Shown in pieces: positions 29,495-63,348 of a DNA stretch of 64,000 nucleotides. Location: assembly GCA_964648565.1 (NCBI GenBank), contig CAZYLG010000001.1, forward strand, positions 12,315 to 76,314. Reading direction: 5' to 3'. Position numbers and translations under genes: made by a program. The DNA is from an uncultured Thermoplasmatales archaeon. Lineage in GTDB: Archaea > Thermoplasmatota > E2 > DHVEG-1. A model generated the notes under the pieces. It did no database searches. It worked only from the letters and a program-made list of their open reading frames with translations, and was not told where the DNA came from. Numbering within the stretch: the stretch's first letter is position 1; each line of letters begins with the position of its first letter.

Positions 29495-29845
29495 ATGAAT
29501 TGGAAAGATAAATACGATGATGTAAGTGATTTTAAAGAAGGTAGAGCTAAAGTTGAACTAAATAATAAATATGGTCATGTAGATAAAAATGGTAATGTAA
29601 CTACCCCTATTATCTATGATATAACAGGATATTTTCAGGGAGGTAGGGCCGGTGTTGAGCTAAATGACAAACAAGGGCACGTTGATAAAAATGGTAATGT
29701 AACTACTCCTATTATTTATGATAGTGTAGGAAATTTTAGAAAAGGCGAAGCTTTGGTTAGATTAAATCGTAAAGAAGGTTATGTAAATAAAAATGGCAAA
29801 GTAATAGAAGGTCACTATGATTTAATTATAGGAGTTTTTAAATGA
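29495..29845 (+). CDS. KWG/WG-repeat protein, 3 repeats, 116 aa
   Basis: Repeats of GRAKVELNNKYGHVDKNGNVTTPIIYD.. match WG_beta_rep-like repeats with W replaced by Y. AGAGGAAG precedes the ATG. Confidence 0.7.
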   Translation: MNWKDKYDDVSDFKEGRAKVELNNKYGHVDKNGNVTTPIIYDITGYFQGGRAGVELNDKQGHVDKNGNVTTPIIYDSVGNFRKGEALVRLNRKEGYVNKNGKVIEGHYDLIIGVFK

Positions 29846-30396
29846 ATTGGAAAAATAAATATGATTATGTAAGTGATTTCCAAGAAGGTAGAGCTAAGGT
29901 TCGATTAAATGGTAAACAAGGTCATGTAGACAAAGAAGGTAACATTACTACTCCTATTATTTATAATAATGTAGGATATTTCCAAGAAGGTAGAGCTAAG
30001 GTTCGATTAAATGGTAAATACGGTCATGTTGATAAAGATGGTAACATTACTACTCCTGTTATTTATAATAATATAAGTCATTTCCAAGAAGGTAGAGCTG
30101 AAGTTGTAAAAAATGGTAAATACGGTCATGTAGACAAAAATGGTAATGTGACTACTCCTATTATTTATGATCTTATAGGAAATTTTCAAGGAGGTAGAGC
30201 TATAGTTGAATTAAATAATAAACAAGGTCATGTAGACAAAAACGGTAACATTACTACTCCTATTATTTATGATAATGTAGGATATTTCCAAGAAGGTAGA
30301 GCTAGAGTTGGATTAAATGGTAAATACGGTCATGTAGACAAAAATGGTAAAGTAATAGAAGGACAGTATGATTTAATTATAGGAGTTTTTAAATGA
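29842..30396 (+). CDS. KWG/WG-repeat protein, 5 repeats, 184 aa
   Basis: ATGA overlap with the upstream paralogue. The 39-aa repeats are near-identical at the DNA level. Confidence 0.7.
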   Translation: MNWKNKYDYVSDFQEGRAKVRLNGKQGHVDKEGNITTPIIYNNVGYFQEGRAKVRLNGKYGHVDKDGNITTPVIYNNISHFQEGRAEVVKNGKYGHVDKNGNVTTPIIYDLIGNFQGGRAIVELNNKQGHVDKNGNITTPIIYDNVGYFQEGRARVGLNGKYGHVDKNGKVIEGQYDLIIGVFK

Positions 30397-30641
30397 ATTG
30401 GAAAGATAAATATGATTATGTAAGTGATTTCCAAGAAGGTAGAGCTATAGTTGTAAAAAATGGTAAATATGGTCATGTAGACAAAAACGGTAATGTAACT
30501 ACTCCTATTATTTATGATCTTATAGATCATTTTAAAGAAGGTAGAGCTGAAGTTGGATTAGATGGTAAACAAGGACATGTAGACAAAAATGGTAAAGTAA
30601 TAGAAGGTCACTATGATTTAATTATAGGAGCGTTTAAATAA
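30393..30641 (+). CDS. KWG/WG-repeat protein, 2 repeats, 82 aa
   Basis: ATGA overlap. Same N-terminal cap (MNWKDKYDYVSDFQEGRA) and C-terminal cap (GKVIEGHYDLIIG.FK) as the other two. Confidence 0.7.
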   Translation: MNWKDKYDYVSDFQEGRAIVVKNGKYGHVDKNGNVTTPIIYDLIDHFKEGRAEVGLDGKQGHVDKNGKVIEGHYDLIIGAFK

Positions 30642-30708
30642 ATTATAAAAAACCCATAAAATAGTAAAGATAAATTAATAAGATGGACTGCACACAGTTC
30701 TTCTTAAT

Positions 30709-36339: not shown

Positions 36340-39300
36340 ATGCCAAGAGATACAAATGAGAGTTCTATAAAATTAATATGGGAGAATAACCCTGATACTC
36401 CGCTAACATCCTCAGCTCTTTCTAAATCATTAGATTTTATTGCTTCATATAAAAATTATAATACAGATTATTCACCTGGAGTTCATGGTGAATTTACTCT
36501 TCTTACAATAGACCCTAACGATGCCACTCAATTGCTATTCAAACGTGGTTCCATTATACAAATTATTAATGAAGCTGAAGACGCAGGAACTCCACTCATA
36601 CCTGAAAATCAACAATATAGAATGTTTGATGTTGGTTTAGATGACATTATTATCACGTCAGAGGATACAGATGAAACACTTCCAACAAAAACAACATGGA
36701 CTGATGCATATTGGTTTGTATATATTTGTGATAGAGATGATTCGGCTATTTATGGAGAGGAATCTGGAGACGGTTATGGCGGGGGAGCTCAAATCATTAT
36801 ATCAAAACGCAACAACTACCCTGTTAACATTCAAGTACCCGGTCGTCCAAGTGATACATATACAGAAAAGGACACTCGTATTATTGGTGGATTTCAAACA
36901 AATGCTGGTAATATCATTGCCAACTCAATATGGGATATCGCTGGGTATTCAGATACAGTAAAAACAAAAAATGGATATTATGTATTAAACCCATATACGA
37001 CAGGAACCTCATATTCTTTTCGTCAAATTGATTTACGTGATCTTAATACAGATAGAAGCAACATTATTGATGGGACTCTAACAATCAATGATGATACAAT
37101 TATTAATGGAGATACAACAATATCAGGAGACATACAATTAAACAGCGATGAGTTTAATATTGACTCATCTAACGGATATATACATTATGAAGATGATGGT
37201 TCATCTGTATTATTGGAAATTAACGCTCCAACTACGTTATCTGAAACTATAACATGTAATGGTACTGTTACAATACAAAATGAGATTACTCATACTGGAA
37301 ATTATGGCATAACAGGAGATATAACACAAACTGGAGATTTATCTGTAACAGGTTCAACTACGTTAACTGGATCATTATCACAATCTAGTGGTAATGTTTC
37401 ATTTGGAGGATCAGGAGCTACTATAACAACTGCTGGTACATGGAGTCATAGTGGAAGTATAGATATTACCGGCAACCCCATAATAACCGGATCAACTACA
37501 TTAAACGGCACTGTAGTAGCAACCGCAAATTCAATTACATTGAAAAATATTGCTGATGATCTTTCTGTAGTCGTGGATAATTCATCTGATAAAATTATAT
37601 TAACAGGAGACGTGGAGATATCAGGAGATGTATATTCACATAATGGTACAGTTAGTCTTCAATCTAATGGGGATATTATTACATCAGTTCCTGGTGGAAA
37701 TACATTCAAACATTCTCAAGGATCATTTATTGTAGATAATGCAGATTTCACAGTACAACAGAATAATTCAACTCCTGTGGTTAATATCGATACTAGTGAA
37801 AAGATTACAACATTTTATGGAGATATAGTTGGAATATTAGATACTGGGAATACATTCACGCTAGAAACACCAAGTTCAGACCCAATATTTACTGTAGAGG
37901 AAGATAATGCTATATTAGAAGGGAACATGACTGTCAGAAATGATTTAACAGTAGATGGGACAATTAATGCTACTATTAGTGGTTCATCCTCTGAAGCAAC
38001 AAAATGGTCAAATACGTTAACACTACATTTTACTGATGATATGACTGGAGACGTTACATTCGATGGAAGTGAAGGCACTCTTAATGTATCTTTAACTGCC
38101 GGAAGCACAATGTATACGAAATCAGATTTAGATGGCGGGCAGTTAGATGATAGATACTATACTGAAGATGAAATTAATCCACTTGATGTATTTTCAAATC
38201 CAATCTGGAGCCCTGCTACTCCATTAGACAAACGATATTATACTAAGAATGGATTAGACACAGGACAATTAGATGGTAGATACTATAATCGTACAGATGC
38301 CGACAATGAATTCTATCCTCGTGTGGATATTATTCCAAGTAGTTCAGGACCAGGAATAGCTAGTGATTCAGATGATATGGATTGGACTGGAACAGAAATA
38401 GACTTAAGATATTATACAAAAGTCGCATTAAACCCAAATACTACTGGAGATGGAATTGGATCAGGAATCGATATAGGTGCTGCTGGTGATGGGGCGTTAG
38501 ATGATAGATACTATACTGAAACAGAAATTGTTACGAATTATTATACTAAAACAAATTTAGAAACAGAAGGTGAAGCTATAGTCCACTGGGGCAACATCAG
38601 TTTTATTCCCTATGGACAGCGAGGAAGTAGTGAGTTCATATCAAGGAATGATCATACCCACTCAATTAATTTTATTGATGCGGCAACAGAAGAATATTTA
38701 TTTGATTTACACAATGAAGAAGTAGATTGGGATTTCTCGTCTTCATTAATGGATATTAGTGTTGGGGATCTGCAATCAGAAATACAATTTTTGAGTGATG
38801 ATCCTTTAGAATATCAGGGAGTATATTTTATTCTCTATTATAATGATGGAGTAAGTACAATAGAATTTTGGTTTCAGAATAGTGGAACTCCTGCTGCCGC
38901 CCCGGACGGTACATCAACATTAGATCAAATTATTGATATCACCGGTCTAACAACAGTAACAGACATACGAGATACTGTTATTGCTGCGATTAGTGGTTTA
39001 ACTGCACCATCTCCTAATCCATTTAATGCTACAGATATTGATGATGATATAATGAGTATTACATATACTGATTTAACTACATTCGGAGATCCAGACGATT
39101 ATGTTCCTACATCATCTGATGATGGTGTTGTAGATGCATATAGAAGTTATTACGGTTCATTACACTTTGATTTGGAAAGTAATGTATATAGTAAGTCTGA
39201 AATTGATACTAATTATTATACTCAGTCTGATCTACAAACATCTGGTAGTGCTGAAGTACATTGGGGTAATATAACAACTAAGCCGACAGAATTCGCTCCA

Positions 39301-39828
39301 ACAGATCATGATAATACTGCTCATAGTGCTGTATATATTGAGGCCACAGATGTTACATATAATAATCTTAACAACAATGGAGATGTTGGTACTAGTGCCA
39401 ATCAAGTGGCTGCTGGTGATCATGATCATGATAGTGATTACTATACTGAAACAGAAACCGATTCACTATTAGCAGGAAAATCCGATACAAGTCATACTCA
39501 TCATGATTTATATTATCAAGAATCAGAATTAAATCCTGGTACATCGAGTGGACTTGCTACAGATGTTACGAATGTTACTTGGGGTACTACAGGAACACAA
39601 GATTTGTCTGGGGTATTAATTAATGATGCTGGTGGGACTACTACTTCAAATAAAAATGATGCTTCTGAGACTGATACACGTTATTATACAAAAGAGGATG
39701 TCGCTATTATTATAGATAATGTTTTACGGAATGTAGCACAACAGATTTATAATGCAGCTTCTTCTTTAGATCTTACTTTTACTAATCCTATTAATGGAAG
39801 TGGTATTAATAAAGATGGATATGCATAA
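36340..39828 (+). CDS. tail-fibre protein, 1162 aa. Its N-terminal module LIWENNPDTP..SKS is shared with the 657-aa and 1277-aa proteins. Also has a beta-helical GxxTxTG repeat and repeated D(D/G)RYYT(K/E)xE and HDHD motifs.
   Basis: GGGAG precedes the ATG. RIIGGFQTNAGNIIANSIWDIAGY is conserved in its paralogues. The segment ~39240..39440 is about 75% nt-identical to 1843-aa gene segment ~31090..31260. Confidence 0.8.
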   Translation: MPRDTNESSIKLIWENNPDTPLTSSALSKSLDFIASYKNYNTDYSPGVHGEFTLLTIDPNDATQLLFKRGSIIQIINEAEDAGTPLIPENQQYRMFDVGLDDIIITSEDTDETLPTKTTWTDAYWFVYICDRDDSAIYGEESGDGYGGGAQIIISKRNNYPVNIQVPGRPSDTYTEKDTRIIGGFQTNAGNIIANSIWDIAGYSDTVKTKNGYYVLNPYTTGTSYSFRQIDLRDLNTDRSNIIDGTLTINDDTIINGDTTISGDIQLNSDEFNIDSSNGYIHYEDDGSSVLLEINAPTTLSETITCNGTVTIQNEITHTGNYGITGDITQTGDLSVTGSTTLTGSLSQSSGNVSFGGSGATITTAGTWSHSGSIDITGNPIITGSTTLNGTVVATANSITLKNIADDLSVVVDNSSDKIILTGDVEISGDVYSHNGTVSLQSNGDIITSVPGGNTFKHSQGSFIVDNADFTVQQNNSTPVVNIDTSEKITTFYGDIVGILDTGNTFTLETPSSDPIFTVEEDNAILEGNMTVRNDLTVDGTINATISGSSSEATKWSNTLTLHFTDDMTGDVTFDGSEGTLNVSLTAGSTMYTKSDLDGGQLDDRYYTEDEINPLDVFSNPIWSPATPLDKRYYTKNGLDTGQLDGRYYNRTDADNEFYPRVDIIPSSSGPGIASDSDDMDWTGTEIDLRYYTKVALNPNTTGDGIGSGIDIGAAGDGALDDRYYTETEIVTNYYTKTNLETEGEAIVHWGNISFIPYGQRGSSEFISRNDHTHSINFIDAATEEYLFDLHNEEVDWDFSSSLMDISVGDLQSEIQFLSDDPLEYQGVYFILYYNDGVSTIEFWFQNSGTPAAAPDGTSTLDQIIDITGLTTVTDIRDTVIAAISGLTAPSPNPFNATDIDDDIMSITYTDLTTFGDPDDYVPTSSDDGVVDAYRSYYGSLHFDLESNVYSKSEIDTNYYTQSDLQTSGSAEVHWGNITTKPTEFAPTDHDNTAHSAVYIEATDVTYNNLNNNGDVGTSANQVAAGDHDHDSDYYTETETDSLLAGKSDTSHTHHDLYYQESELNPGTSSGLATDVTNVTWGTTGTQDLSGVLINDAGGTTTSNKNDASETDTRYYTKEDVAIIIDNVLRNVAQQIYNAASSLDLTFTNPINGSGINKDGYA

Positions 39829-39860
39829 AAAAAGCTCCTCGAAAGAGGAGCTCTATATAT
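39826..39860. terminator. bidirectional intrinsic terminator: AGCTCCTC-GAAA-GAGGAGCT hairpin with an A7 tract upstream and a T-rich tract downstream
   Basis: Perfect 8-bp stem 39833..39840 / 39845..39852 with a GAAA loop. On the minus strand TTTTTTT follows the stem. It lies between the convergent 1162-aa gene and the lipoprotein gene. Confidence 0.8.
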
Positions 39861-39877
39861 CATTAAATTGGTTTTAA

Positions 39878-40594
39878 TTATTGTTTAATAAATTCATGCA
39901 ATGTACTATTACCAAACTTTGTAGTATTATCGGAAACAACATCTGGATCCCAGTGAGTTTCGAATTCGAAATCATCACCTATATTTTCTTTTGTCCAAAT
40001 TTCAAATTCAGCATTTTCACCGCTTCCATTATCATTTTCTACTACTTTCCAATCAGCAAAGTTCATATCGACATCACCTAACCAATAGTTAACTCTTTGA
40101 AATCTAGCTGTACCATCAGAATTAAAAGTCCAGATATCAGTGGTAGTTTGACCACCTTCGTCGAATTCTCGTTCCCAGGTTCCATCAAGAACATCACCAT
40201 CAGATACATAAGAGTAATCATATACCTCTATAGTAACACTGTCAGTATAACCACCGTCATCAGTTTCGAATTCAATGGTTACATTCTTAACAGTATCAGT
40301 GACAGAATCATCGAATGAAATAGAATCTTCAGTTACATTAACACCCGAGGGGGCGGTGACAGTGACGTCAGTATTGTCTGCGTCATTCGGTTTAACTTTG
40401 ATTTCAATGCCTATGCTTTCATTGTCATAAGCAACCAATTTGTCTGCTACTACCGTGATGCTTTCAACATCAATGGTATCATCACCAGTATCTTCAGGCG
40501 GATCCATCGAAATATCACACCCAAACATAACAACCAACGCAACCAAAACCATCATTACAATCATCATTTTCTTCATAATCTCTAAATCCTCCAT
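39878..40594 (-). CDS. secreted lipoprotein-like acidic protein, 238 aa from the first ATG. The likely true start is the second Met at 40576, giving MKKMMIVMMVLVALVVMFGC...
   Basis: Signal peptide with KK, a hydrophobic core and Cys at position 20 (lipobox-like VMFGC). GGAGG lies 7 nt upstream of the second ATG. The mature part is rich in Asp, Thr and Glu. Its own terminator lies downstream. Confidence 0.6.
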   Translation of the reverse strand: MEDLEIMKKMMIVMMVLVALVVMFGCDISMDPPEDTGDDTIDVESITVVADKLVAYDNESIGIEIKVKPNDADNTDVTVTAPSGVNVTEDSISFDDSVTDTVKNVTIEFETDDGGYTDSVTIEVYDYSYVSDGDVLDGTWEREFDEGGQTTTDIWTFNSDGTARFQRVNYWLGDVDMNFADWKVVENDNGSGENAEFEIWTKENIGDDFEFETHWDPDVVSDNTTKFGNSTLHEFIKQ

Positions 40595-40612
40595 AGATTT
40601 AATATAATATTA

Positions 40613-40804
40613 TTATACAACAGCATCATCAACTGCTAAATTTTTTTCTTCAAAAAACTCACAAATTTTTTCTTTAGGTATATATTGTGGGTTTTCAGAT
40701 TTAAATGTACCTTCAGAATAATAACATCGTGCGTTATATATGAGAGCAGAGAATTTACATTCACGGCAAGTTTTCTTTAATAACATCAACTTTGCTTTAT
40801 TCAT
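40613..40804 (-). CDS. small Cys-containing protein, 63 aa (CRECK...C..), possibly zinc-binding
   Basis: ORF directly upstream of the lipoprotein gene on the minus strand, with the same orientation. Confidence 0.35.
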   Translation of the reverse strand: MNKAKLMLLKKTCRECKFSALIYNARCYYSEGTFKSENPQYIPKEKICEFFEEKNLAVDDAVV

Positions 40805-40901
40805 AATACTATTATACTATATATAAACTATCTGCTAAAATAATCTTAAAACATTTCAGAAAAACTACAAAGATAATTAAAAATATATACGGAGAGGAAA
40901 T

Positions 40902-43706: not shown

Positions 43707-46700
43707 ATGGCATCATTTAAATTATTATGGGAAAATAACCCAGACACTCCAATAGATTCTAATCGATTATCAAGTTCTATAGATTATTATTCCAAACAAT
43801 CTATTTTATACTTTGATAGTAATGAATTGGAAAGTGGAGAAGATATATTAAAATTACGAAGTAATGTAAAAGTAAATATAGAAATCCCTACTACATTATC
43901 TGCATGGGATTTTAATAATTCATTAGTTTCATATAATAGTAAATTTGCTCCAGAAGACGCAGAAAATATTATTTTTAGAGATGAATATAATAATTCTCCA
44001 GGGAGTGTTGCGATTGATGCAGCAATCGATAATGTTCTAACAAATTCAGGATTCGAGAGTGGTTTAACTGATTGGACATTTACTGATGATAATGGTTCTA
44101 TTGTTTCAGTATCCACGTCTGAATATTATCCGTCAAATCTAAGTACTCAATCTGCAGAAATAACTGTTAATTCAAGTGGAACACTTTGTGAATTATCTCG
44201 TCAATCCGATACAAGTACAGTAGTTGGAAACTATTCACTATCATTTTATTATAAAACAAGTACAGATTTATATTTACAAATTAAAACATTTAAAAATGGT
44301 AATGATAATTATTGGAATGGCAATAATTGGGTATTTTCCCAGGCATACTTTACGATGCCTTATACAGATAATCAATGGCATAGATATGAAATGCAAGAAA
44401 TCGATGTTAGTCTTATTAATTATGTAGAAATCATTTTGTATTCTGATTATCCTAATTCGACTCATTATGTTGATTCATTTCTTTTAGAATTAAAAGATTA
44501 TTGTTCATCATATTATCCAACATCTATTGGTGATTCTCTTCTCACGTACAGTAGAGATGTTATTATTCTTCGAGAAGGTTTGATTGATTTTACATTTTAT
44601 CCTAAAATAAAAGAGGATGTAACATTATTTCTAGTAAAAAGCGTAAGCGGCAACGATTTATTAAAACTTGTATTCGATGAAAGTGAAAATAAATTTGTTT
44701 TTACGATTTATGATAAAAACACATCACAAGAATTGACGTATGATATAATTTTTAATTTTGATAATATTATTGATGAATGGACAAGAGTAATAATTAGTTG
44801 GAGTGAAACACTAAAAAAAGTATACGTAAATATCGGAACATATTTACGAGAATTTGATTTACCTACTGGGTATTTTGCTGAAGATCAAAGCAATATTAGT
44901 AAAGTATATATAGGAAGTGATTCTGACGGTACTCATCTTGCTAAATCATTATTTGAATTCCTGAAATTTGACATAGAATATAAAAATTTAGATGAAATTA
45001 ATAATTTACTTCTTTATCCTTCTGAAATTAATGATAGTGATTTTAAAGTATTCGAAAATGAAAATAAATCATTAATTATTAACCATCATTTATTAGATAC
45101 TGGCACAAATTTTGCTAATAATAGAACATATTATATTTGGGTTGCAGACAATAATGACGGTGATAGTTGTGAGCTGTTGGTGTCATTGAGCGATCATAAT
45201 CCTTCTGGATATATTTGGTATCGATCACGGATTATCGGTGGATTTAGAACTGATTCAAGTAGAAATATTATAAAAAATAGTGTATGGGATATTAGTACTA
45301 AATTAACTACTAATTTACATATTGACAGATTATTAATTGGAGGAACCCGAACCCTGACAATTGATGATGTTGGAGCTGGTGAAGATCCTACTCCAGTAGA
45401 AATTAGTACTACCCCGTATGGTGATGTAAATAATGCTATTTATAATATTGACTCCTATTTCACGCGACATGTATACGGAAGAAATATTACAGATGGAAAT
45501 TTTTTAGATATTGATAATGAAAATGGATCTATAACAATAGATGATATTCATATAGATGGTCATATAATGAATTCAAATGATACAGATTTTGAGCTGTATG
45601 CTTCTGGTTCGAATACTCTTTCTTTACATTCAGATGAAATTATAATAACATCTGAGGGAACAGACGTAAAAATTGATGATATACGAATATTGAATAATAC
45701 GATATATGTGGCAAATGGGAATGATTTAATTATTAATTCAAATATTGATGATGCAACAAGTGATAATAATATTCAGGTGATTGCAAATGATGTGATAGTA
45801 GAACCTAAAAACGATTTTGTTGTCGATGCTGATAATCAGATACAATTAACTGCAGAAAATTCTATATTGATAACATCAAATACGAATAATATAGTTACGT
45901 CTTCAAACAATTTTACCGTATCGACTGATAATATTATTACTTTAGACGATATAAAAATTGATGCTAATAAAATTTATCGTGACGGAACATTAGAAGTAAT
46001 TAATATAGAATCAACTGGTAACATTAATATTAATTCATTAGACGAGAATGTAACAATAGAAGAAATCGATTTTAATGATAATAAAATTTTTCAAACAAAT
46101 GATGTTCATCGTTATATATCATTTTATGATGATGGAAGTCCTGTGGGGTTTTCAGATTCTGCAGAAAATATTGATATCGCAGCTGGTAATAAAGTAGTTA
46201 TTGATTCTCCTGTATTCCATGTTAAATCACAGGAAGTGTGGTTTGAGGCTGATTTATCTGATTTCATACGATTAGATTATATAAAAATTAATGGAAGTCA
46301 GTTGTATACTGAAACTGGATACCCTTTGAGTATATTATCACCAGAGAATATAACAATAAATTCTGGTTCTACACTGTCACTTCAAGGACCGCCTGTACAG
46401 ATTGAAAATATAACATTAACCGATAAAACACTTGAACCATTAGACGGGGCATGGACATTAGGGAATATTATACATCAAACAAATATTAAAGGTAATGGGT
46501 TTGATGTATATAGTGAAACTGGATACGTAGATTTTAGTTCAGATATACGGGTAAGTAGTGGTAGTGGTTCTATTTTAGCGAATGCTTCATCTGCTACAGA
46601 ATTTGAAACTGCTGTAGATTTAGATTTTGCTTCTACTGATACTACTCAAATGGATACATATAATCAAGTATATACATTAACAGGAACCGAAGGTACAATT

Positions 46701-47540
46701 GATGTTGATGTGACACATACTCATGATGGTCGTTATTATACTGAAACAGAGGCAGATAATAGATTCGTAAATATGAATGGTGATACGATGACTGATGATT
46801 TAAATTTTACTATTACAGCTTCTGCGACATCAAAAGGGATAACATGGACCGGATTAACTGACGAGCATAAAATTTATGTCGAGGAGACTGCGGGAGGTGA
46901 AGAAACATCATTAATTATAGAAAGTGGAAATAACGCAGGTACTGATAAAACTATTTTTAGAAATAGAGACGGAGTAGCTCCTATTGATGTATTAACATTA
47001 AACAATAATTTAGTTCATTCTCATAAAGATGTTCAAATTGGTGATTCTGGAACATTAGAATATAACCAGTCAAACCCAGTTGGAACAGAGATATTAGGGT
47101 ATAATGGTTATTTTTATGCAAACAGGGTATATAATGCTGTATGGCAAGATTTAGCCGAATGTTGGGAAAAGAATCCTCAATATACATTTGGATATAATAT
47201 TGTTGTAGTACAAACTGAACATGGAGTAAGACCATCAATGAAACGCGCAGAGAAAACAACAGTAGGAGTAATTTCTGATACATATGGTTATATTTTGAAT
47301 GCAGATAAACTTTTTGAACATGATTTAAATAAATCAGAATCTGTTCCTGTAGCGATTGCTGGTAGAGCGATTGTAGCTTATGTAGGAGATATAGCGATTG
47401 GAGATGAGGTCGTATCATATAAAAATGGTAATTCAATTAAAGCGAATATATTTGAAAAAATATGTAAGCGAGATAGGATCCTTGGAAAGGTTGATAAAAT
47501 CTTGTCTTCAAATCTGATTAAAATAAAAGTTTATGGATAA
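43707..47540 (+). CDS. tail-fibre protein, 1277 aa. It shares the N-terminal module LLWENNPDTP..SSS and has a CBM-like jelly-roll domain and a distinct C-terminal domain.
   Basis: The CBM-like domain NVLTNSGFESGLTDWTF...YVDSFLLEL sits at ~44030..44500. RIIGGFRTDSSRNIIKNSVWDIS is conserved. HTHDGRYYTETEADNRF lies near 46720. Confidence 0.8.
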   Translation: MASFKLLWENNPDTPIDSNRLSSSIDYYSKQSILYFDSNELESGEDILKLRSNVKVNIEIPTTLSAWDFNNSLVSYNSKFAPEDAENIIFRDEYNNSPGSVAIDAAIDNVLTNSGFESGLTDWTFTDDNGSIVSVSTSEYYPSNLSTQSAEITVNSSGTLCELSRQSDTSTVVGNYSLSFYYKTSTDLYLQIKTFKNGNDNYWNGNNWVFSQAYFTMPYTDNQWHRYEMQEIDVSLINYVEIILYSDYPNSTHYVDSFLLELKDYCSSYYPTSIGDSLLTYSRDVIILREGLIDFTFYPKIKEDVTLFLVKSVSGNDLLKLVFDESENKFVFTIYDKNTSQELTYDIIFNFDNIIDEWTRVIISWSETLKKVYVNIGTYLREFDLPTGYFAEDQSNISKVYIGSDSDGTHLAKSLFEFLKFDIEYKNLDEINNLLLYPSEINDSDFKVFENENKSLIINHHLLDTGTNFANNRTYYIWVADNNDGDSCELLVSLSDHNPSGYIWYRSRIIGGFRTDSSRNIIKNSVWDISTKLTTNLHIDRLLIGGTRTLTIDDVGAGEDPTPVEISTTPYGDVNNAIYNIDSYFTRHVYGRNITDGNFLDIDNENGSITIDDIHIDGHIMNSNDTDFELYASGSNTLSLHSDEIIITSEGTDVKIDDIRILNNTIYVANGNDLIINSNIDDATSDNNIQVIANDVIVEPKNDFVVDADNQIQLTAENSILITSNTNNIVTSSNNFTVSTDNIITLDDIKIDANKIYRDGTLEVINIESTGNININSLDENVTIEEIDFNDNKIFQTNDVHRYISFYDDGSPVGFSDSAENIDIAAGNKVVIDSPVFHVKSQEVWFEADLSDFIRLDYIKINGSQLYTETGYPLSILSPENITINSGSTLSLQGPPVQIENITLTDKTLEPLDGAWTLGNIIHQTNIKGNGFDVYSETGYVDFSSDIRVSSGSGSILANASSATEFETAVDLDFASTDTTQMDTYNQVYTLTGTEGTIDVDVTHTHDGRYYTETEADNRFVNMNGDTMTDDLNFTITASATSKGITWTGLTDEHKIYVEETAGGEETSLIIESGNNAGTDKTIFRNRDGVAPIDVLTLNNNLVHSHKDVQIGDSGTLEYNQSNPVGTEILGYNGYFYANRVYNAVWQDLAECWEKNPQYTFGYNIVVVQTEHGVRPSMKRAEKTTVGVISDTYGYILNADKLFEHDLNKSESVPVAIAGRAIVAYVGDIAIGDEVVSYKNGNSIKANIFEKICKRDRILGKVDKILSSNLIKIKVYG

Positions 47541-56453: not shown

Positions 56454-56815
56454 ATGTTCAAATAATGCAATAATGTTTTTGCTTTTAAAGTAGCATAATC
56501 AGGGTATTGTTTCACATATTCACGCGCATCGAGAAAATAAAGAGCTGCTGAACTTTTAGATTTAATGTAAATCATACTCCACCAAAATCTTTCTTCATCA
56601 GACATCTCGGAATTAAATGATAAAAGTACACTTCCATTTTCACATGGAAAATCAAGTGATCCCCCAATAAAGTAACCACCAGCTTTATCGAAAAAAATGT
56701 CTTTTAATACATCTTTATGCTCACCATTGCTACGTGTCTGCATATCATAAGTATGTGTATCTTGCGCGACAGGGGTTTCATCTTTCTGAACAAAAATTTT
56801 CTTCAACAAATTCAA
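56450..56815 (-). CDS. hypothetical protein, 121 aa. The start is uncertain: the track start overlaps the CCA gene stop by 38 nt, and an internal Met at residue 25 (about 56743) would remove the overlap.
   Basis: Its stop overlaps the stop of the convergent + gene by sharing TTAA. Confidence 0.35.
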   Translation of the reverse strand: MNLLKKIFVQKDETPVAQDTHTYDMQTRSNGEHKDVLKDIFFDKAGGYFIGGSLDFPCENGSVLLSFNSEMSDEERFWWSMIYIKSKSSAALYFLDAREYVKQYPDYATLKAKTLLHYLNI

Positions 56816-58115
56816 GAACTTTCTCCTTATCTGTTAACTCATCTTCTAATTGAAGAATACGCACAGAATCTAAAATTTTTTTAAAAATAGGACCAGGTTT
56901 AAATCCTAATGTAATTAAATCATTGCCATCGATAATTGGATCTGGTAATAATGTTTCCGGGGTGTCAAATTCTTTTTGTTTTTCTCTAATAAATGTCAAC
57001 CATCCAAAAGAATCTTTGCTTTTACCAACACAATCGGCAGCACAAAGAGTCAGTAACTCTTCAATCCATTCCTCGGCAAGCAACATCCTGACAGTAGATT
57101 TTTTCATCTTTTTCACGTCATAGGGTTTCATATGATTTTTTACAAGAAACACTACCTTATCGATAAATTTATTAGAGAACTTAAAACGAGTCAAAATGTC
57201 TTCAGTAATTTCAGCTCCAACATGAGCATGCCGTTTTGAAGTGATGACTCCATCAATGATTTTAGTAGTTGAAGGTTTACCGACATCATGCAGAAGAGCA
57301 GCCCAAATTAGTTCTGTAGAACTATCTTTAGGAAGAGCTTCCATAACCTGAATTGTATGTTCAGAAACCCAAATTTCGGGATGAAATTTTTTATTTTGGC
57401 GACAGGTAAACATTACTTCGATTTCAGCAAGTACGACAAATAAAATGCCTGATTCTCTCAATAATGTAAGAGCTCGTCGAGGCTGGTGATACGAAAATAA
57501 TTTCACTAATTCATCTCTAATTCGTTCTTTTGATACAGTCATGATTTCAAGTGAATTATCACAAATAGCTTTCCATGTTTCTTCTTCAATAGAAAAACCC
57601 AATTTTACAGCAAAACGGATTGCTCTTAGAAGACGAAGTTTATCCTCTTTAATTCTTTCTTCGGGGTTGCCAATAAATCTAATTCTTCTTTCAAGTAAAT
57701 CTTCAATACCGTTTACATAATCTAATGTTTCATCTGTCATAGGATCATAAAATAAACCATTGATGGTAAAATCTCTCCTTTGAGCATCTTTTTCAGCTGT
57801 AGAAAAAGAAATAGAAGAAGGCCGTCTTCCATCTTCATATTCGATATCTGTACGGAATGTCGATACCTCAAAAGAATATCCATTCTCGATGACGTTAATA
57901 ACTCCAAAAGCCTTTCCAATGGGAACCGTTTTTTTGAAAATATGCTCAATTTCTGATGGTTTAGCTGATGTAGCAATATCAATATCAGAAGGATGCGTAC
58001 CGAATTTCATGTCTCTTACAGCACCACCAGCAATATAAGCAGTATGGCCATAATCTTTAAGAGTGGAAATAATAGATGTAGCAATCTGTAGTTCAGTCAT
58101 ATATATATTATACAT
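56778..58115 (-). CDS. cca: CCA-adding tRNA nucleotidyltransferase with a C-terminal HD domain, 445 aa
   Basis: Pol-beta head-domain motifs GGAVRD...DIDIAT and RRDFTING. HD motif LLHDVGKP. Confidence 0.8.
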   Translation of the reverse strand: MYNIYMTELQIATSIISTLKDYGHTAYIAGGAVRDMKFGTHPSDIDIATSAKPSEIEHIFKKTVPIGKAFGVINVIENGYSFEVSTFRTDIEYEDGRRPSSISFSTAEKDAQRRDFTINGLFYDPMTDETLDYVNGIEDLLERRIRFIGNPEERIKEDKLRLLRAIRFAVKLGFSIEEETWKAICDNSLEIMTVSKERIRDELVKLFSYHQPRRALTLLRESGILFVVLAEIEVMFTCRQNKKFHPEIWVSEHTIQVMEALPKDSSTELIWAALLHDVGKPSTTKIIDGVITSKRHAHVGAEITEDILTRFKFSNKFIDKVVFLVKNHMKPYDVKKMKKSTVRMLLAEEWIEELLTLCAADCVGKSKDSFGWLTFIREKQKEFDTPETLLPDPIIDGNDLITLGFKPGPIFKKILDSVRILQLEDELTDKEKVLEFVEENFCSER

Positions 58116-58136
58116 CTTTTATGACAACTGCTAAAA

Positions 58137-59039
58137 TTATCCGAATTTTTTTGTAGTATCAAAAGTAGAATGTAGTGAGGCAACCAATTCTTTTTGTTTC
58201 TCATTCAATTGCTTTGGGTATTCAATATGCACCCGTATAATCATATCTCCTCGAGTATTTTCGGCGATAGGAAATCCTTTATTTTTTATTACAAATGATT
58301 GTCCATCTTTGATACCTTCTGGTATAGAAGTTTTGATGTTCTCACCATCTATATTTTTAATAAAAATTGTATCACCAAGAAGAGCTTGTGTAAAATTAAT
58401 TGTTATTGTACATAGTAAATTATATCCATCGTATTGAAAAAATGGATGAGCTTTTAGCCGTGGATATATTTTTATATCTCCTGCCTTTCCACCGTTCATT
58501 CCATGATGGCCTTCACCTTTTAGTACAATTGGTTTATTAGGATTAAAGCCTTTTTGGATGTTTAATTTAAATGTCCTCTTTTTTTCTACTATAACTCCGT
58601 GTTCATTCTCTCTTCGGGTTATCGGAATATTCATTGATTTACCAGTAAATACATCAATAAAATCCAACCGAACTTCAATTTTAATATCTTTACCTTTTCT
58701 TTTTCTTTGAGATCCGCCCATTCCGAATGTGGTAAAAATATCTTCCCATGTGTCCGTTCCCCCTCCCCATGTGAATCTAACATTAAATCCGCCGAATGGA
58801 TCACCACCCGTAGAAGCAAAAGGATTACCACTTCCACTAAACGGGTTGGGGTTATCATATTCTTTTCGTTTTTGTTCATCAGATAGAATAGAGTACGCTT
58901 CTTGAATTTCTTTAAATTTAGTGTCATCACCCTGAGATGTATCTGGATGATATTGTTTTGAGAGTTTTCTATACGCTTTTTTTATTTCATCTTGTGAGGC
59001 ATTTTTATCTACTCCTAATATTTTATAATAATCTTTCAT
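58137..59039 (-). CDS. DnaJ/CbpA-like J-domain co-chaperone, 300 aa: J domain, G/F-rich linker and C-terminal substrate-binding domains, with no CxxCxGxG zinc finger
   Basis: [33 protein letters not shown] contains the HPD motif. Followed by a Gly/Phe-rich region. Confidence 0.8.
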
Positions 59040-59047
59040 ATAGTTAA

Positions 59048-59311
59048 CTATGCCTTATAATATTCTTCTTTTAATTGTATAGGAATTCCATTTAATGTCA
59101 TTCCATCAACTGTAATATATATTAATCGTGTCATCATTAATTCGGTTTCACCTACAGTATGATATATACTTTCATCTTCGTAGAATGCGTATGTAATAAC
59201 TCCATTTTCTTGTAATAAAAATACCTTCGTTGTATAATCAGACGACCAGAGCATACAGGTCATCGAATCTTGCAGAAATGTTTTTGCTACTAAATCATCT
59301 CGAGCTTTCAT
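59048..59311 (-). CDS. hypothetical protein, 87 aa
   Basis: ORF in an operon-like array. Confidence 0.4.
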
Positions 59312-59312
59312 T

Positions 59313-59645
59313 TTACTGTAAAAAGAATCCTTTTTCTGGAGTCCATATCCATACCTCAGTATCTGGAAGCGTGGATATTACAGTATCTTCAAAATTTTCA
59401 GCAATTTTATCTGAAAACATTCGGATAGCTTTATGAAGACCATGTGGTCCTTCTCCGGAATAACCAACTGCGAATCCTGTGGCTTCATAGGCAGTATGAT
59501 CTTTAAATATAAACGTAGTTAACATAGGAAATCCTGGTTCAATAACAACTCTTTCCAAAATTTTATTGTTGAATTGTTTTAAATTTTGAAAACTAGTTTC
59601 GGTAATTCCATCGACATCACTATTAACTACTGTATATATCATCAT
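59313..59645 (-). CDS. hypothetical protein, 110 aa
   Basis: ORF only. Confidence 0.4.
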   Translation of the reverse strand: MMIYTVVNSDVDGITETSFQNLKQFNNKILERVVIEPGFPMLTTFIFKDHTAYEATGFAVGYSGEGPHGLHKAIRMFSDKIAENFEDTVISTLPDTEVWIWTPEKGFFLQ

Positions 59646-59668
59646 TTACTCCTTTATTATAAATATGC

Positions 59669-59950
59669 TCAATCAATTCTTACTAATATAAATCTGGGTA
59701 GTTCACGTGAAGTATCAAAAATTTTACGTATATTCTCTTCATTGATATTTTTTCCTGTTAAATGTACAATGTGATCTTCTAATTGAGTAAAAGTAGCAGA
59801 AGAAACTTCATAACTTGTGATATAAAATTCTCCTATTATTCGATCCTTAATCTCTTGTACTTTTTCACCGTTAAGTAATAAAATGGCTAAATCGACTAAT
59901 TCGTCTTTACTTAATGAATTCACGTCTTTCATATAATATACCTCGGACAT
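59669..59950 (-). CDS. hypothetical protein, 93 aa
   Basis: ORF only. Confidence 0.4.
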   Translation of the reverse strand: MSEVYYMKDVNSLSKDELVDLAILLLNGEKVQEIKDRIIGEFYITSYEVSSATFTQLEDHIVHLTGKNINEENIRKIFDTSRELPRFILVRID

Positions 59951-60963
59951 TTTCTATTATTTTCAATTAATTGTTTTCTAAATTGTTTTACTTCTTCTGA
60001 ATTCCATATCTGAAAAAAATTATTTGAAAATAAAACACTAATACCATTTTTTTCTTCAAGAAATGAACATGGAAAAAACTCCCCTTTAGCATTAATGTAT
60101 GACGAGAATAATCCAGACTCACATGGCTCTACAAATTCTTCATACATCGAACGATTTTCAATATTATCTAAAAATTTATTTGCCGAACATGAATCAAATC
60201 CTATAGGGACATTATAATTAATAGCTTTATTTACGAGATGTTTAAAACTCTCTTTATTGAGAATATTATGGTTTTCTCCTCGACCTTTTTGCTTAAGAGA
60301 GAGAAAAATAATGGCGTTAACATGTTTATCATCAAACGTATTAATTAAATCAAGGGCTTTCGAATATGTTTCTTGCATGAGGGGAAAATGAATATTAATT
60401 TGTTTCATACCATTTTTATACAGTTTATCGACTAATCGGAATGTTTTTCCTTTATCATAATAAGAGATTGCTACAGCTCCAAAATATGAAGCGATTTTTC
60501 TTGCCATATCATCAGTTAATTCCTCATAACAATGCATTGTAAAATTGGGTATAATACCAGATTTTCGAGCATATTTCGCCATCTCAAAAAAATCAGGATT
60601 AGTATTAATATTCATAATTCCAAATGCAATTTGGGTTAATTGAGGCCCCATTTTATGTAATATTTCTTTAAATTCATCAAATGTCATATTATATGTTGGA
60701 TAATTTCCGTTTGATTTATAACAGAATGAACATTGTCCTTTACATCCTCCATCATAAACAAGTCTATCTTCTGGATAGTTTTCAGAATTGTGGACAGATG
60801 TGCTGATCTCGATGTCAAGTATTTCAGGTCCTATTGGAGAATAATCTGGGTCATCATCAATATCTTTACCCCAACGAATAAAAAGACCGTTGTGTTTATC
60901 AAAATTATAATTATAATTTTTACTTCGTACTATTTTTTCATCTTTAGAATTATATATCTTCAT
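59929..60963 (-). CDS. radical SAM domain protein, 344 aa, with additional C-terminal cysteines
   Basis: CKGQCSFC is the CxxxCxxC [4Fe-4S]/SAM-binding motif. C-terminal cysteines lie in VEPCESG...FPCSF...RKCPRY. Confidence 0.65.
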   Translation of the reverse strand: MKIYNSKDEKIVRSKNYNYNFDKHNGLFIRWGKDIDDDPDYSPIGPEILDIEISTSVHNSENYPEDRLVYDGGCKGQCSFCYKSNGNYPTYNMTFDEFKEILHKMGPQLTQIAFGIMNINTNPDFFEMAKYARKSGIIPNFTMHCYEELTDDMARKIASYFGAVAISYYDKGKTFRLVDKLYKNGMKQINIHFPLMQETYSKALDLINTFDDKHVNAIIFLSLKQKGRGENHNILNKESFKHLVNKAINYNVPIGFDSCSANKFLDNIENRSMYEEFVEPCESGLFSSYINAKGEFFPCSFLEEKNGISVLFSNNFFQIWNSEEVKQFRKQLIENNRKCPRYII

Positions 60964-61142
60964 TATAAACCCTTACAATAGTCAGTAAAACCCTCAAAAC
61001 ACTTTTCACGAGTTGGATAAGAGCCAATCCATTCAGTCCAAGTCTCATCTGAAAAATACCATTTATCGTTTTTCTTTATGAAATAGTCATTTGCGTTATT
61101 AGTTTTTAAAAAGAATTTCGCTATTTCAGTAGTAATATTCAT
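60963..61142 (-). CDS. small hypothetical protein, 59 aa (MNITTEIAKFFLKTNNANDYFIKKNDKWYF...), not in the ORF track
   Basis: ATGA overlap with the upstream gene and a TAATG overlap with the radical-SAM start. This is coupling geometry. Confidence 0.35.
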   Translation of the reverse strand: MNITTEIAKFFLKTNNANDYFIKKNDKWYFSDETWTEWIGSYPTREKCFEGFTDYCKGL

Positions 61143-61438
61143 CCATCAATCCATTTTTGATGCATTTTTTTCATTTCATTATACATAGAATTCAATTGAG
61201 GAACATCAATTTCTTGACGAATAAGATCATAAACAATATCAGAAACATCATCTTCATCGAGAGGTTGATCACATTCAATATTATTTACTTCTTGTCGTAA
61301 TTCTTCGAATTCTTCTCGTGATACAATATATGGTTTCACAAAACGATAAATCTTCTCACTTTCAGTTTCACCAGGAAACGCATTCGCTTTTATAGCTTCT
61401 TCAATGACATCAACTAAATTTTCCATTTTATCCTCCAT
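61139..61438 (-). CDS. hypothetical acidic protein, 99 aa
   Basis: ORF only. Confidence 0.4.
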   Translation of the reverse strand: MEDKMENLVDVIEEAIKANAFPGETESEKIYRFVKPYIVSREEFEELRQEVNNIECDQPLDEDDVSDIVYDLIRQEIDVPQLNSMYNEMKKMHQKWIDG

Positions 61439-61730
61439 TAAATAATTTTATTTCATTCATTACATCTCTTATGTCATTATCAATTAGATACCATATAAAC
61501 TTCTCTATTTCCAATAGATATCGCAATCGTACTATAGTAAAATATGCTATAATACTATTAAGAAATCCAAGTAATATAAGATTTCCTAAAAGACACAATA
61601 TACCTACAGTAATACTGCTCAAAATAGTTAAAATGTATATTGATTTGGTTAATAGCGTTTTCTGTATTTTCATTAATTTAGAATATCCAACGACATCACG
61701 AAGAATTTGTTGATTAGATTTTTTAAACAT
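61428..61730 (-). CDS. small membrane protein, 100 aa, with two predicted transmembrane helices
   Basis: Hydrophobic stretches ILTILSSITVGILCLLGNLILLGFLNSIIAYFTIV. Confidence 0.45.
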   Translation of the reverse strand: MFKKSNQQILRDVVGYSKLMKIQKTLLTKSIYILTILSSITVGILCLLGNLILLGFLNSIIAYFTIVRLRYLLEIEKFIWYLIDNDIRDVMNEIKLFNGG

Positions 61731-61777
61731 ATATCCTCCTTATCCCATCAACTTTGCTTTATTCATATTTAAGAAAT

Positions 61778-61981
61778 TCATATATTGATTATATAATAAT
61801 TGGAACCTATTATTACATCATCGATGTATACAGGAAGTTCATAAAGTACTAAACCAGTGGGAGTAATTGTGAATGAGTCGTCTCCATATAATTTTCTTTT
61901 CGCTGTTTCAGCAACTGTTTCATTTCTACATATTTCTCGAATATAACGAAATGAATCATTCCCCATTACAACTATTTTCAA
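61778..61981 (-). CDS. hypothetical protein, 67 aa
   Basis: ATGA overlap with the upstream DHH gene. Confidence 0.35.
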   Translation of the reverse strand: MKIVVMGNDSFRYIREICRNETVAETAKRKLYGDDSFTITPTGLVLYELPVYIDDVIIGSNYYIINI

Positions 61982-63009
61982 TCTCCCTCGCCTTCTTCTT
62001 CATAATTCCAATTTTCTTTTAATACATTTTTAAACATATGTTTTCGTGTTACTTTCCAGAATGCATCGGAGTTTTTATCATCTAAATCTGTATAAAAATT
62101 TAATGGAATTTTTGCTGCTCCAGCGTTAGATTTCCCGCCTCCATATTCGCCGAATAAATCTTTCATCATTTGATTTACATCTAAACTAACTAGATGAGTT
62201 CTGATTGAAACTTCTAAATATTTTTTACCGGTAATTGCGAATATGACTGCTGTTTGAACTGATTCCATTCGAGTATATTCTTCAGCCAATATTGCTATAA
62301 CATCTCGCTGATCAGTAGGTACAAGACCAATTCCTCCTACAAATACTCCATTCGCTTCTTGTGAATTTCCTTCTTCATGTAATTTAATTCTTTTATCATA
62401 TAAATATCGAGGCAATGGATAATTCATGGCTTTTTGAAGGACATCTTTATCTGCTAATTCTAATAACTCTTGATATGCTACGAAATCATTTTTAGTCATA
62501 TGCTCGCTAATTAAGTCATTTGTATCGGTTCTAATACCAAGAAGTAAAGCGGTATATACATCAGAATGTTCAGTAGATATCTCTATTTTATATTCTTTTA
62601 ATAATTCCCATACTAATGTTGCGTTGGCTCCGTAATTTACGTCAATAATTTTATTTTTTGCTTTAGAGTCACTTTTATGATGATCAATGACCAGTGATGG
62701 ATTACGTGCTATAGAATTATGTTCAGTACAATCAACACAAATTTCTATTGAATCTTCAGTTAATTTTTCTTTTTTTATAATTGGTATACTCAATAAATTA
62801 ACGATAGTTTTATTTTGTGGGTGGGAGATATCTCCAGAATATATGATTTTACAATCGTAATCATAATACTGAAGCAATAGAGCTATTCCGAGAGCTGATC
62901 CAACTGCATCTGGATCAGGAGCTGGATGTACTATGATGTTAATGTTTGGTTCTTCTATTTCTTTTAATGTTTCGAGAAAACTATCTACAATTGTTTTTTT
63001 ATTCTTCAT
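61978..63009 (-). CDS. DHH/DHHA1-family phosphoesterase, NrnA-like nanoRNase/pAp phosphatase type, 343 aa
   Basis: N-terminal HPAPDPDAVGSALG and DHH (VIDHHKS). The C-terminal DHHA1 motif is GGGKSNAGAAKI, which is GGGH..AAG-like. Confidence 0.7.
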   Translation of the reverse strand: MKNKKTIVDSFLETLKEIEEPNINIIVHPAPDPDAVGSALGIALLLQYYDYDCKIIYSGDISHPQNKTIVNLLSIPIIKKEKLTEDSIEICVDCTEHNSIARNPSLVIDHHKSDSKAKNKIIDVNYGANATLVWELLKEYKIEISTEHSDVYTALLLGIRTDTNDLISEHMTKNDFVAYQELLELADKDVLQKAMNYPLPRYLYDKRIKLHEEGNSQEANGVFVGGIGLVPTDQRDVIAILAEEYTRMESVQTAVIFAITGKKYLEVSIRTHLVSLDVNQMMKDLFGEYGGGKSNAGAAKIPLNFYTDLDDKNSDAFWKVTRKHMFKNVLKENWNYEEEGEGD

Positions 63010-63348
63010 TTATGACTCCAATGCTGTTAATACTATTGATTCGAATTCACCAGTTTTCATCAATTGTTTTACAGTAATTTTTGAAGACTTTTCAGCAACA
63101 GAATACGTTGATAATGGATCAATAGTAATTTCATATTTCCCTAATACATTATCCACCTTATAATTCTTAGGAGTAAAATATGCTTTTGCATGGAGAAATT
63201 GATGGGTATCAATGTCTGGAGTATTATATAATTTTATTCCATCCAATAGTTTCCCGCGAATAAACGGAAACATAAAAAAATCACCTACATTTACAATAAT
63301 TACTTCCATTTCTTGATTCATTTGTTGGATAAGAATATCAAATTTCAT
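63010..63348 (-). CDS. hypothetical protein, 112 aa
   Basis: ORF abutting the DHH gene. Confidence 0.4.
   Translation of the reverse strand: MKFDILIQQMNQEMEVIIVNVGDFFMFPFIRGKLLDGIKLYNTPDIDTHQFLHAKAYFTPKNYKVDNVLGKYEITIDPLSTYSVAEKSSKITVKQLMKTGEFESIVLTALES

Follow-up and report, generated by a model that had tools for sequence, protein, structure and literature searches.

A moron-like lipoprotein gene convergent with a tail-fibre-type gene in an uncultivated T4-like phage, and its possible role in receptor exclusion

Introduction

Receptor-masking lipoproteins are known so far mainly as the tiny Llp and Cor proteins of enterobacterial siphoviruses. Ltp from Streptococcus thermophilus phage TP-J34 is an exclusion lipoprotein that acts in a Gram-positive host; it is longer than 100 amino acids (aa), consists of a linker and folded extracellular domains and, expressed from the prophage, blocks DNA entry by binding the tape-measure protein. 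Morons, as described in the lambdoid-phage literature, are independent promoter-gene-terminator units inserted between conserved genes; they have been defined chiefly in temperate phages, whose prophages express them. In phage T5, the gene for Llp adjoins the receptor-binding gene (pb5) and is expressed early, and its product inactivates FhuA (PMC9586334, PMC11990801). Exclusion lipoproteins also adjoin receptor-binding genes in many small siphoviruses (PMC9586334, PMC11990801), and Llp/Cor family proteins are small when mature (~60-80 aa) and contain a conserved intramolecular disulphide (PMC9586334). Here we describe a predicted lipoprotein gene encoded against a block of tail-fibre-type genes in a 64-kb stretch of DNA (contig CAZYLG010000001.1, positions 12,315 to 76,314; hereafter the window). 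The window has 31% guanine plus cytosine (GC) and comes from an uncultivated T4-like phage of low GC, a myovirus whose baseplate is of the T4 type. We tentatively propose, at a probability of roughly 0.4, that the gene encodes an independently transcribed envelope lipoprotein that would block adsorption through the receptor of the neighbouring fibre, in the manner of T5 Llp.

Results

The lipoprotein gene lies on the minus strand within a plus-strand structural block of ~41 kb (15309-56453) with very large open reading frames (ORFs) of up to 3615 aa. Among the minus-strand ORFs of the block that reach 90 aa, and those of whatever length that fall in a gap, this gene and a 63-aa ORF are the sole ones outside larger plus-strand ORFs. 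The lipoprotein gene is 49 nt from the stop of one fibre-type gene, and 97 nt separate the 63-aa ORF from the next fibre-type gene.

39878..40576, minus strand: lipoprotein gene, 232 codons plus stop (39878-39880); the ORF is open to an ATG at 40594
40588..40592, minus strand: Shine-Dalgarno sequence GGAGG, 11 nt before the ATG at 40576
40517..40576, minus strand: signal peptide MKKMMIVMMVLVALVVMFGC, with the Cys20 codon at 40517-40519 and Asp at +2
40217..40474, minus strand: N-terminal domain (~residues 35-120), a probable divergent Big_2 domain (bacterial immunoglobulin (Ig)-like group 2) after a DPPED linker
39881..40201, minus strand: C-terminal domain (~residues 126-232), a predicted beta meander with no family or fold match

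The start codon is likely the ATG at 40576 (MKK...) and not that at 40594, because GGAGG lies upstream of it, GGAGGATTT with a spacing of ~10 nt is also found before the homologous gene on another contig (L002, see below), and public gene calls give 232 aa. GGAGG or AGGAG ribosome-binding sites precede most genes of the window. The N-terminus matches PROSITE rule PS51257, which calls for K or R among the first 7 residues, a hydrophobic stretch free of charges and [LIVMFWSTAG]2-[LIVMFYSTAGCQ]-[AGS]-C with the Cys at position 15-35. Two K occur in the first 7 residues, followed by six uncharged residues, and VLVALVVMFGC contains the lipobox VMFGC with Cys20; among the real ORFs of the 64 kb, this one alone passes the rule. 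The strongest Kyte-Doolittle window of the protein scores 3.15 (residues 4-18), and we found no second hydrophobic segment along its length, nor a C-terminal membrane helix. The product is therefore predicted from its sequence to be exported, and it should be lipidated on Cys20 and anchored in the envelope. The mature part of 212 aa contains 34 Asp, 24 Thr and no Cys other than the lipidated one, and it has 53 acidic residues against 11 basic and a pI of ~3.5. The initial annotation of this DNA had described both a lipoprotein-type signal peptide and an acidic, Asp/Thr-rich mature part, and both descriptions hold. The codon score of the gene (0.589) is close to the phage gene mean (0.585).

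The gene is bounded by transcription signals of its own.

39831..39854, minus strand: intrinsic terminator with a 10-bp stem, a 4-nt loop and U7
40612..40639, minus strand: proximal promoter-like site TTAGCAGTTG-N10-TGTATAAT (TTAGCA-N16-TATAAT), just before the lipoprotein Shine-Dalgarno sequence
40811..40838, minus strand: distal promoter-like site TTAGCA-N16-TATAAT, in a 97-bp AT-rich gap

The terminator lies 3 nt past the stop of the convergent fibre gene. The 59-nt stretch that includes it (39822-39880) folds at -16.7 kcal/mol (z = -4.3), and no other perfect GC-rich hairpin with 7 bp or more and a T-run behind it occurs on either strand of the 64 kb. Rfam searches over the cassette returned sub-threshold matches only, driven by the terminator. 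The exact arrangement TTAGCA-N16-TATAAT is found three times in the window against 0.16 expected, and three or more copies arose in none of 100 shuffles. The third copy lies at 58107-58134 on the minus strand, in the non-structural block, and TTAGCAGTTG...TGTATAAT (10 + 8 bases) is common to it and the proximal site at 40612-40639. The proximal site falls inside the 3' end of the 63-aa ORF and stands directly before the lipoprotein Shine-Dalgarno sequence, so the lipoprotein gene can be its own transcription unit. The distal site lies in the gap 40805-40901 (97 bp, 19.6% GC). Taken overall, sigma-70-like matches in this AT-rich window do not exceed the level of shuffled sequence, and the T4 late-promoter word TATAAATA is not enriched, so late promoters give no argument about timing. 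The strong terminator of the initial annotation is borne out, with no second hairpin like it in the window; its AT-rich promoter region at 40805..40901 stands as to composition and the exact TTAGCA-N16-TATAAT site, but generic sigma-70-like matches in the window are at chance level. The third site overlaps the annotated start of a tRNA nucleotidyltransferase gene (56778-58115); because the overlap includes the start codon, either that annotated start or the promoter call may be wrong.

After its signal peptide and lipid anchor, the protein has an acidic, Pro-containing linker (DPPED), a Big_2-like Ig spacer and a beta C-domain of ~100 aa. Profile-profile comparison of the N-domain family with genuine Big_2 repeats gave 97.9% probability (E 4.4e-13), and on this evidence the lipoprotein is probably a remote Big_2-domain protein; the repeats used in the comparison score PF02368 strongly, and the phage protein itself gets no Pfam match. 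An exhaustive HMMER search of 1.84 billion cluster representatives yielded a few relatives, and a profile search added one; every relative found is a lipoprotein. Residues 35-125 resemble three of them (P0003, P0008 and P0013) at 35-40% identity, and genuine Big_2 lipoproteins more distantly. C-domain residues 134-231 resemble P0004 alone, with 39% identity over 98 aa. Signal peptides ending in ...SFFGC or ...LIFSAC lie upstream of P0003, P0008 and P0013, P0004 begins MKNKTITIVLTLCLGFMFFGC, and a PPED linker after the Cys is found in relatives as well. Other searches with the lipoprotein returned nothing closer: there was no match in NCBIfam or, at E up to 1, in Pfam, PHROGs and PADLOC, no tblastn match in 50,697 GenBank phage records, only the query itself in a word-indexed search of 5.8 billion proteins, generic Big_2 proteins only in a genome scan, and no result from a PDB sequence-profile search or fold searches. 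The window contains no paralogue, so the lipoprotein does not derive from the fibres of the phage.

The composition of the gene sets it apart from its surroundings. Its GC content at third codon positions (GC3) is 0.28, compared with a mean of 0.155 (standard deviation 0.026, maximum 0.233) for 119 windows of the same size (232 codons) in long phage genes, and the Ig-like domain, at 0.305, exceeds all 293 phage windows of its size. The relatives that share the Ig-like domain have bacterial chromosomal contexts, and one of them lies on a contig (L003) with 46% GC. The N- and C-domains differ in their closest relatives and in GC3, and the gene is thus a mosaic. Because of its private terminator, its promoter-like sites, a GC3 above that of all windows and its bacterial chromosomal relatives, the cassette looks like a moron of foreign origin, complete in itself as a transcription unit and placed between two tail-fibre-type genes. 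The defining traits of morons are seen here as a terminator and promoter-like sites (the latter consensus matches) inside a conserved block, together with deviant GC3.

The relative that resembles the C-domain, P0004, is encoded on L002, a 5-kb Logan contig. Immediately downstream of P0004, and convergent with it, L002 has a 256-aa ORF (P0010) that resembles the end of the fibre-type protein encoded beside the phage lipoprotein gene.

39376..39828, plus strand: fibre tip, the C-terminal 150 aa of a 1162-aa fibre-type protein (gene 36340-39828), which recurs on L002

The last 150 aa of P0010 and of the 1162-aa fibre are 68% identical (E 3e-63). P0010 is the sole true tip homologue in the word search of 5.8 billion proteins, as two other matches share only the generic HxH/YYTETE fibre repeat; a scan of JGI metagenomes with the fibre-tip alignment likewise gave GDHDHD/YYTETE repeat matches only, none of which covers the tip, and no lipoprotein relative at those loci. 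At the DNA level, the window and L002 align over one contiguous block of ~1.2 kb. Within this block, fibre DNA windows over 39567-39716 are 88-93% identical in nucleotides and the last 30 codons ~55%, the terminator stem matches at every base, the 40 nt beyond the hairpin are almost the same, and the lipoprotein coding DNA is 45-65% identical until the likeness fades at the domain boundary near residue 130. No further likeness of L002 to the window was found outside the block: the fibre's first ~1000 aa, the lipoprotein N-domain, the upstream region and all flanking genes differ. Both lipoprotein copies are intact (ORF, Shine-Dalgarno sequence, signal peptide and lipobox) despite being only ~39% identical, which argues for a maintained function. 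Distal ends of convergent fibre and lipoprotein genes that are kept together are what a functional pair would look like, similar to that of a receptor-binding protein with its Llp.

Several other features of L002 were observed. On the lipoprotein strand, the terminator loop reads TTTC in the window (39841-39844) and GAAA on L002 (2273-2276); the two are reverse complements, as if the loop had been flipped. Directly upstream of P0010, L002 encodes a second lipoprotein (3292-4464, minus strand; LLLMTAC lipobox) with an FGE-sulfatase domain and an Asn-rich C-terminus. The FGE-sulfatase fold is the one used by variable proteins of diversity-generating retroelements. The contig also carries a membrane-protein fragment, and two of its flank proteins have no match in the 50,697 phage records.

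The relatives that share the Ig-like domain lie near genes of other kinds. PIN/PhD toxin-antitoxin genes are found beside the relatives on contigs L003 and L012, a PIN_2 gene near those on L004 and L005, and an AAA_14/DUF4143 ATPase gene near those on L003 and L004. The ATPase on L003 (5461-6822, minus strand) matches the PADLOC defence candidate PDC-S01 (E 1.7e-148); the PIN/PhD pair sits between this gene and the lipoprotein relative (8069-8461), in a neighbourhood that resembles a defence island. The signal peptide and the mature Ig-domain part stand in different frames in each of the four relatives of bacterial or metagenomic origin, and the frame breaks in a poly-C tract just after the lipobox Cys codon.

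L003 8089-8110: poly-C tract, C8
L004 3439-3461: poly-C tract, C9
L005 176-198: poly-C tract, C9
L012 1111-1131: poly-C tract, C7

This pattern looks like slipped-strand phase variation, with the gene "off" in every assembly, or like homopolymer error. The phage copy has no poly-C tract and is constitutively in frame.

Upstream of the lipoprotein gene lies the second minus-strand ORF.

40613..40804, minus strand: 63-aa ORF with Cys at 13, 16, 27 and 48, of uncertain coding status

It has no Shine-Dalgarno sequence, and its ATG lies 6 nt past the end of the -10 box of the distal promoter-like site. The codon score, 0.204, is higher than in the other five frames, falls short of the 5th percentile for genuine 63-codon windows (0.299) and is equalled by 24% of spurious ORFs. 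No homologue was found in Pfam, PHROGs, PADLOC, NCBIfam or further searches (the best tblastn matches, to starts of T7-like primase genes, have E 0.3-0.5 and are not significant), no counterpart is present upstream of the L002 homologue, and the product has no hydrophobic segment. The ORF may be a leaderless small gene or only the leader of the lipoprotein transcript, and it is probably not essential to the cassette. A two-gene minus-strand unit with a Cys-rich small ORF had been proposed for this region. Both ORFs exist and the smaller has four Cys in 63 aa, but its coding evidence is weak (no Shine-Dalgarno sequence, the low codon score, no homologue); because of this and the lipoprotein's own promoter-like site, the two-gene unit is doubtful.

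The window also contains a baseplate gene of the T4 type.

10826-13102, minus strand: gp6-type baseplate wedge gene (PHROG 219, E 2e-26)

In the structural block, three ORFs (starts 36340, 40902 and 43707) share the N-terminal motif K(L/M)xWENNxDTP, the third of these has an Mtd second domain, and a 1692-aa ORF at 49239 matches a tail-fibre PHROG. The label of a plus-strand fibre array, used in the initial annotation, is reasonable because of these features, and the block does run for 41 kb on the plus strand; but the two genes flanking the lipoprotein cassette have no direct family match, and we infer their fibre identity. No close phage relative was found in the 50,697 GenBank phage records with the 7.5-kb region or the neighbouring 657-aa fibre as query (tblastn and blastn), and IMG/VR gave no relatives of the lipoprotein, the fibre tip, the 657-aa fibre, the baseplate protein or two conserved DNA words. 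No tRNA genes are present in the 64 kb, nothing in the window suggests lysogeny, and no repeats tie the cassette to other parts of it.

Some neighbouring genes were also noted. The third motif-bearing ORF (43707-47540, plus strand) encodes a 1277-aa fibre with an Mtd second domain (PF21916, E 3.6e-8), a domain that Bordetella phage BPP-1 has in its variable receptor-binding protein. In 30-50 kb, no pair of template and variable repeats such as a diversity-generating retroelement has was detected, and the ORFs scanned include no reverse transcriptase. At 30009-30650, tandem or near-tandem copies of a 102-nt unit, 72-84% identical, cover both the last part of ORF 29842-30396 and the gap ahead of an 1843-aa ORF. 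A 533-aa protein (13095-14696, minus strand), whose gene adjoins the baseplate wedge gene, has DUF7487, Mom-family and Vsr-like endonuclease matches and also matches PHROG 3339, "homing endonuclease" (E 1e-127). The non-structural block (56778-63348, minus strand) encodes a DnaJ/CbpA-type chaperone, a CCA-adding tRNA nucleotidyltransferase with an HD domain, a DHH phosphoesterase and a radical-SAM/SPASM protein that is 43% identical to proteins of Klebsiella T4-like phages.

Discussion

If the lipoprotein blocks adsorption as proposed, host RNA polymerase would transcribe its gene from the sigma-70-like sites, separately from the fibre genes, and the product would be anchored in the envelope of the infected cell. 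There, its C-domain would engage or mask the envelope receptor that serves the neighbouring fibre tip. Later phages and released progeny would then fail to adsorb productively, and less progeny would be lost to debris. The fibre tip and the C-domain of the lipoprotein would travel as one linked module. A parallel with Llp had been drawn from the position and independent transcription of the gene in the initial annotation, which also stated that the protein is not recognisably related to exclusion proteins. The second statement agrees with the lack of any Pfam, PHROG, PADLOC or phage-record match. As for the parallel, it gains from the recurrence of the tip/C-domain pair on L002, convergent and with the same terminator, but the protein is not of the Llp/Cor type.

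A number of points weigh against receptor blocking. An exclusion role is plausible from sequence context and analogy, and the fibre's last 150 aa are a putative receptor-binding part. No known exclusion protein of Pfam, PHROGs, PADLOC or the phage records resembles the lipoprotein. The promoter-like sites are consensus matches only, and any claim about timing is therefore unsupported. The structure models are poor, with predicted local distance difference test scores (pLDDT) of 42 and 48, so that no argument can be made from the fold; strands are predicted in the C-domain, where pLDDT reaches 57-74 over residues 130-180. The linkage with the fibre tip amounts to one historical event, because it consists of a single contiguous block on one other contig, and it could reflect physical rather than functional coupling. 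The identity of that contig is also ambiguous: L002 has ~32% GC up to 3.3 kb and 40-53% thereafter, and because of this jump it may be a phage-bacterium junction or a chimera.

The alternative that survives best is that the cassette is a moron without any connection to the fibre. In this case, a bacterial envelope lipoprotein would serve some other function, such as remodelling, adhesion or exclusion of unrelated phages, and the gap between the fibre-type genes would be a tolerated insertion site. The foreign GC3, the private terminator and the bacterial chromosomal relatives all suit such a passenger, as does the generic character of Big_2 domains as surface modules; the domains of the gene differ in relatives and GC3, which makes it a mosaic, and the link to the fibre tip is again the single block. 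However, the sole other copy of the C-domain lies once more tail to tail with the sole other copy of the tip, with everything else replaced, and an indifferent passenger is not expected to keep its partner at ~39% identity. We consider this alternative possible, if somewhat unlikely.

The receptor-blocking proposal can also be extended. The tip and the C-domain could form a portable module of "specificity plus self-exclusion" that phages exchange as one piece of DNA, and the lipoprotein could represent a new exclusion family (anchor, Ig spacer and variable head) tied to phase-variable bacterial lipoproteins beside defence genes. This extension is speculative and, in our estimate, rather doubtful. 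If it is true, one protein family controls adsorption for both bacteria and a T4-type phage.

The poly-C tracts raise another alternative, in which the phage protein is a variant of phase-variable surface lipoproteins that serve as receptors, and either displaces the host receptor or binds fibre tips as a decoy. Variable tracts (C7, C8 and C9) such as those in the relatives are typical of contingency genes for exposed surface structures, and the phage copy is locked in frame. On the other hand, a protein that binds fibres would, if displayed by the infected cell, trap progeny, the tip-linked C-domain is absent from the phase-variable relatives, and phase variation is read here from assemblies alone, where homopolymer error is possible. 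This explanation is improbable. There is a similarly slight chance that the gene is an evolutionary leftover, a hitch-hiker that plays no part in the phage life cycle. In favour of this, the gene is an orphan whose relatives are very few, and no close phage relatives were found that might show conservation; nevertheless, the 232-codon ORF, Shine-Dalgarno sequence, lipobox and terminator are intact, its codon score equals that of phage genes, and the diverged L002 copy is intact too. A role in lysis, as an outer-membrane spanin subunit or a unimolecular spanin, is so improbable that we reject it: outer-membrane spanin subunits are phage lipoproteins and a lipobox is present, but the mature part (212 aa in two folded beta domains, against the usual 40-60 aa) is too large, no partner gene with an N-terminal membrane helix and no C-terminal membrane helix were found, and there is neither an endolysin or holin gene nearby nor a PHROG spanin match.

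The weight of the locus depends on which of these explanations applies, and a mere passenger moron would be of minor interest. If a two-domain lipoprotein does the work of Llp in a T4-type myovirus of a different host, low in GC, receptor masking arose more than once. A convergent lipoprotein gene and fibre tip that share a terminator would then be a genomic signature for pairs of receptor and receptor-binding protein in uncultivated phages, and the phase-variable bacterial relatives would be candidate host-side controls of adsorption.

Four kinds of known system can be set beside this locus. The bacterial Big_2 lipoproteins (P0003, P0008 and P0013) are true homologues, alike in lipobox type, PPED linker and Ig-like domain at 35-40% identity; theirs, however, are chromosomal genes (~46% GC on L003), interrupted by poly-C, with other C-domains and not beside fibre genes. 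With morons, the cassette shares promoter-like sites, a strong terminator, transcription against the surrounding block and an atypical synonymous-site composition, whereas this phage is of the T4 type and its window shows no sign of lysogeny. Ltp is likewise a membrane-anchored phage lipoprotein of more than 100 aa, and, should the host lack an outer membrane, would be the nearer analogue; it differs in that no sequence likeness is seen (PHROGs) and in that the lipoprotein described here is linked to a fibre tip. The last comparison is with Llp of T5 and Cor of T1, phi80 and N15. Membership of the Llp/Cor family was rejected on size, the lack of a disulphide and the lack of sequence likeness: the mature protein has 212 aa against ~60, no Cys pair, and a Big_2-like plus beta-domain architecture, and it belongs to a myovirus with a T4-type baseplate and not to a siphovirus. 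Like llp and cor, however, the gene is a phage lipoprotein gene with its own transcription signals beside a fibre-type gene with a putative receptor-binding role, and the role that we propose the proteins have in common is inactivation of the phage's own receptor, against both superinfection and loss of progeny.

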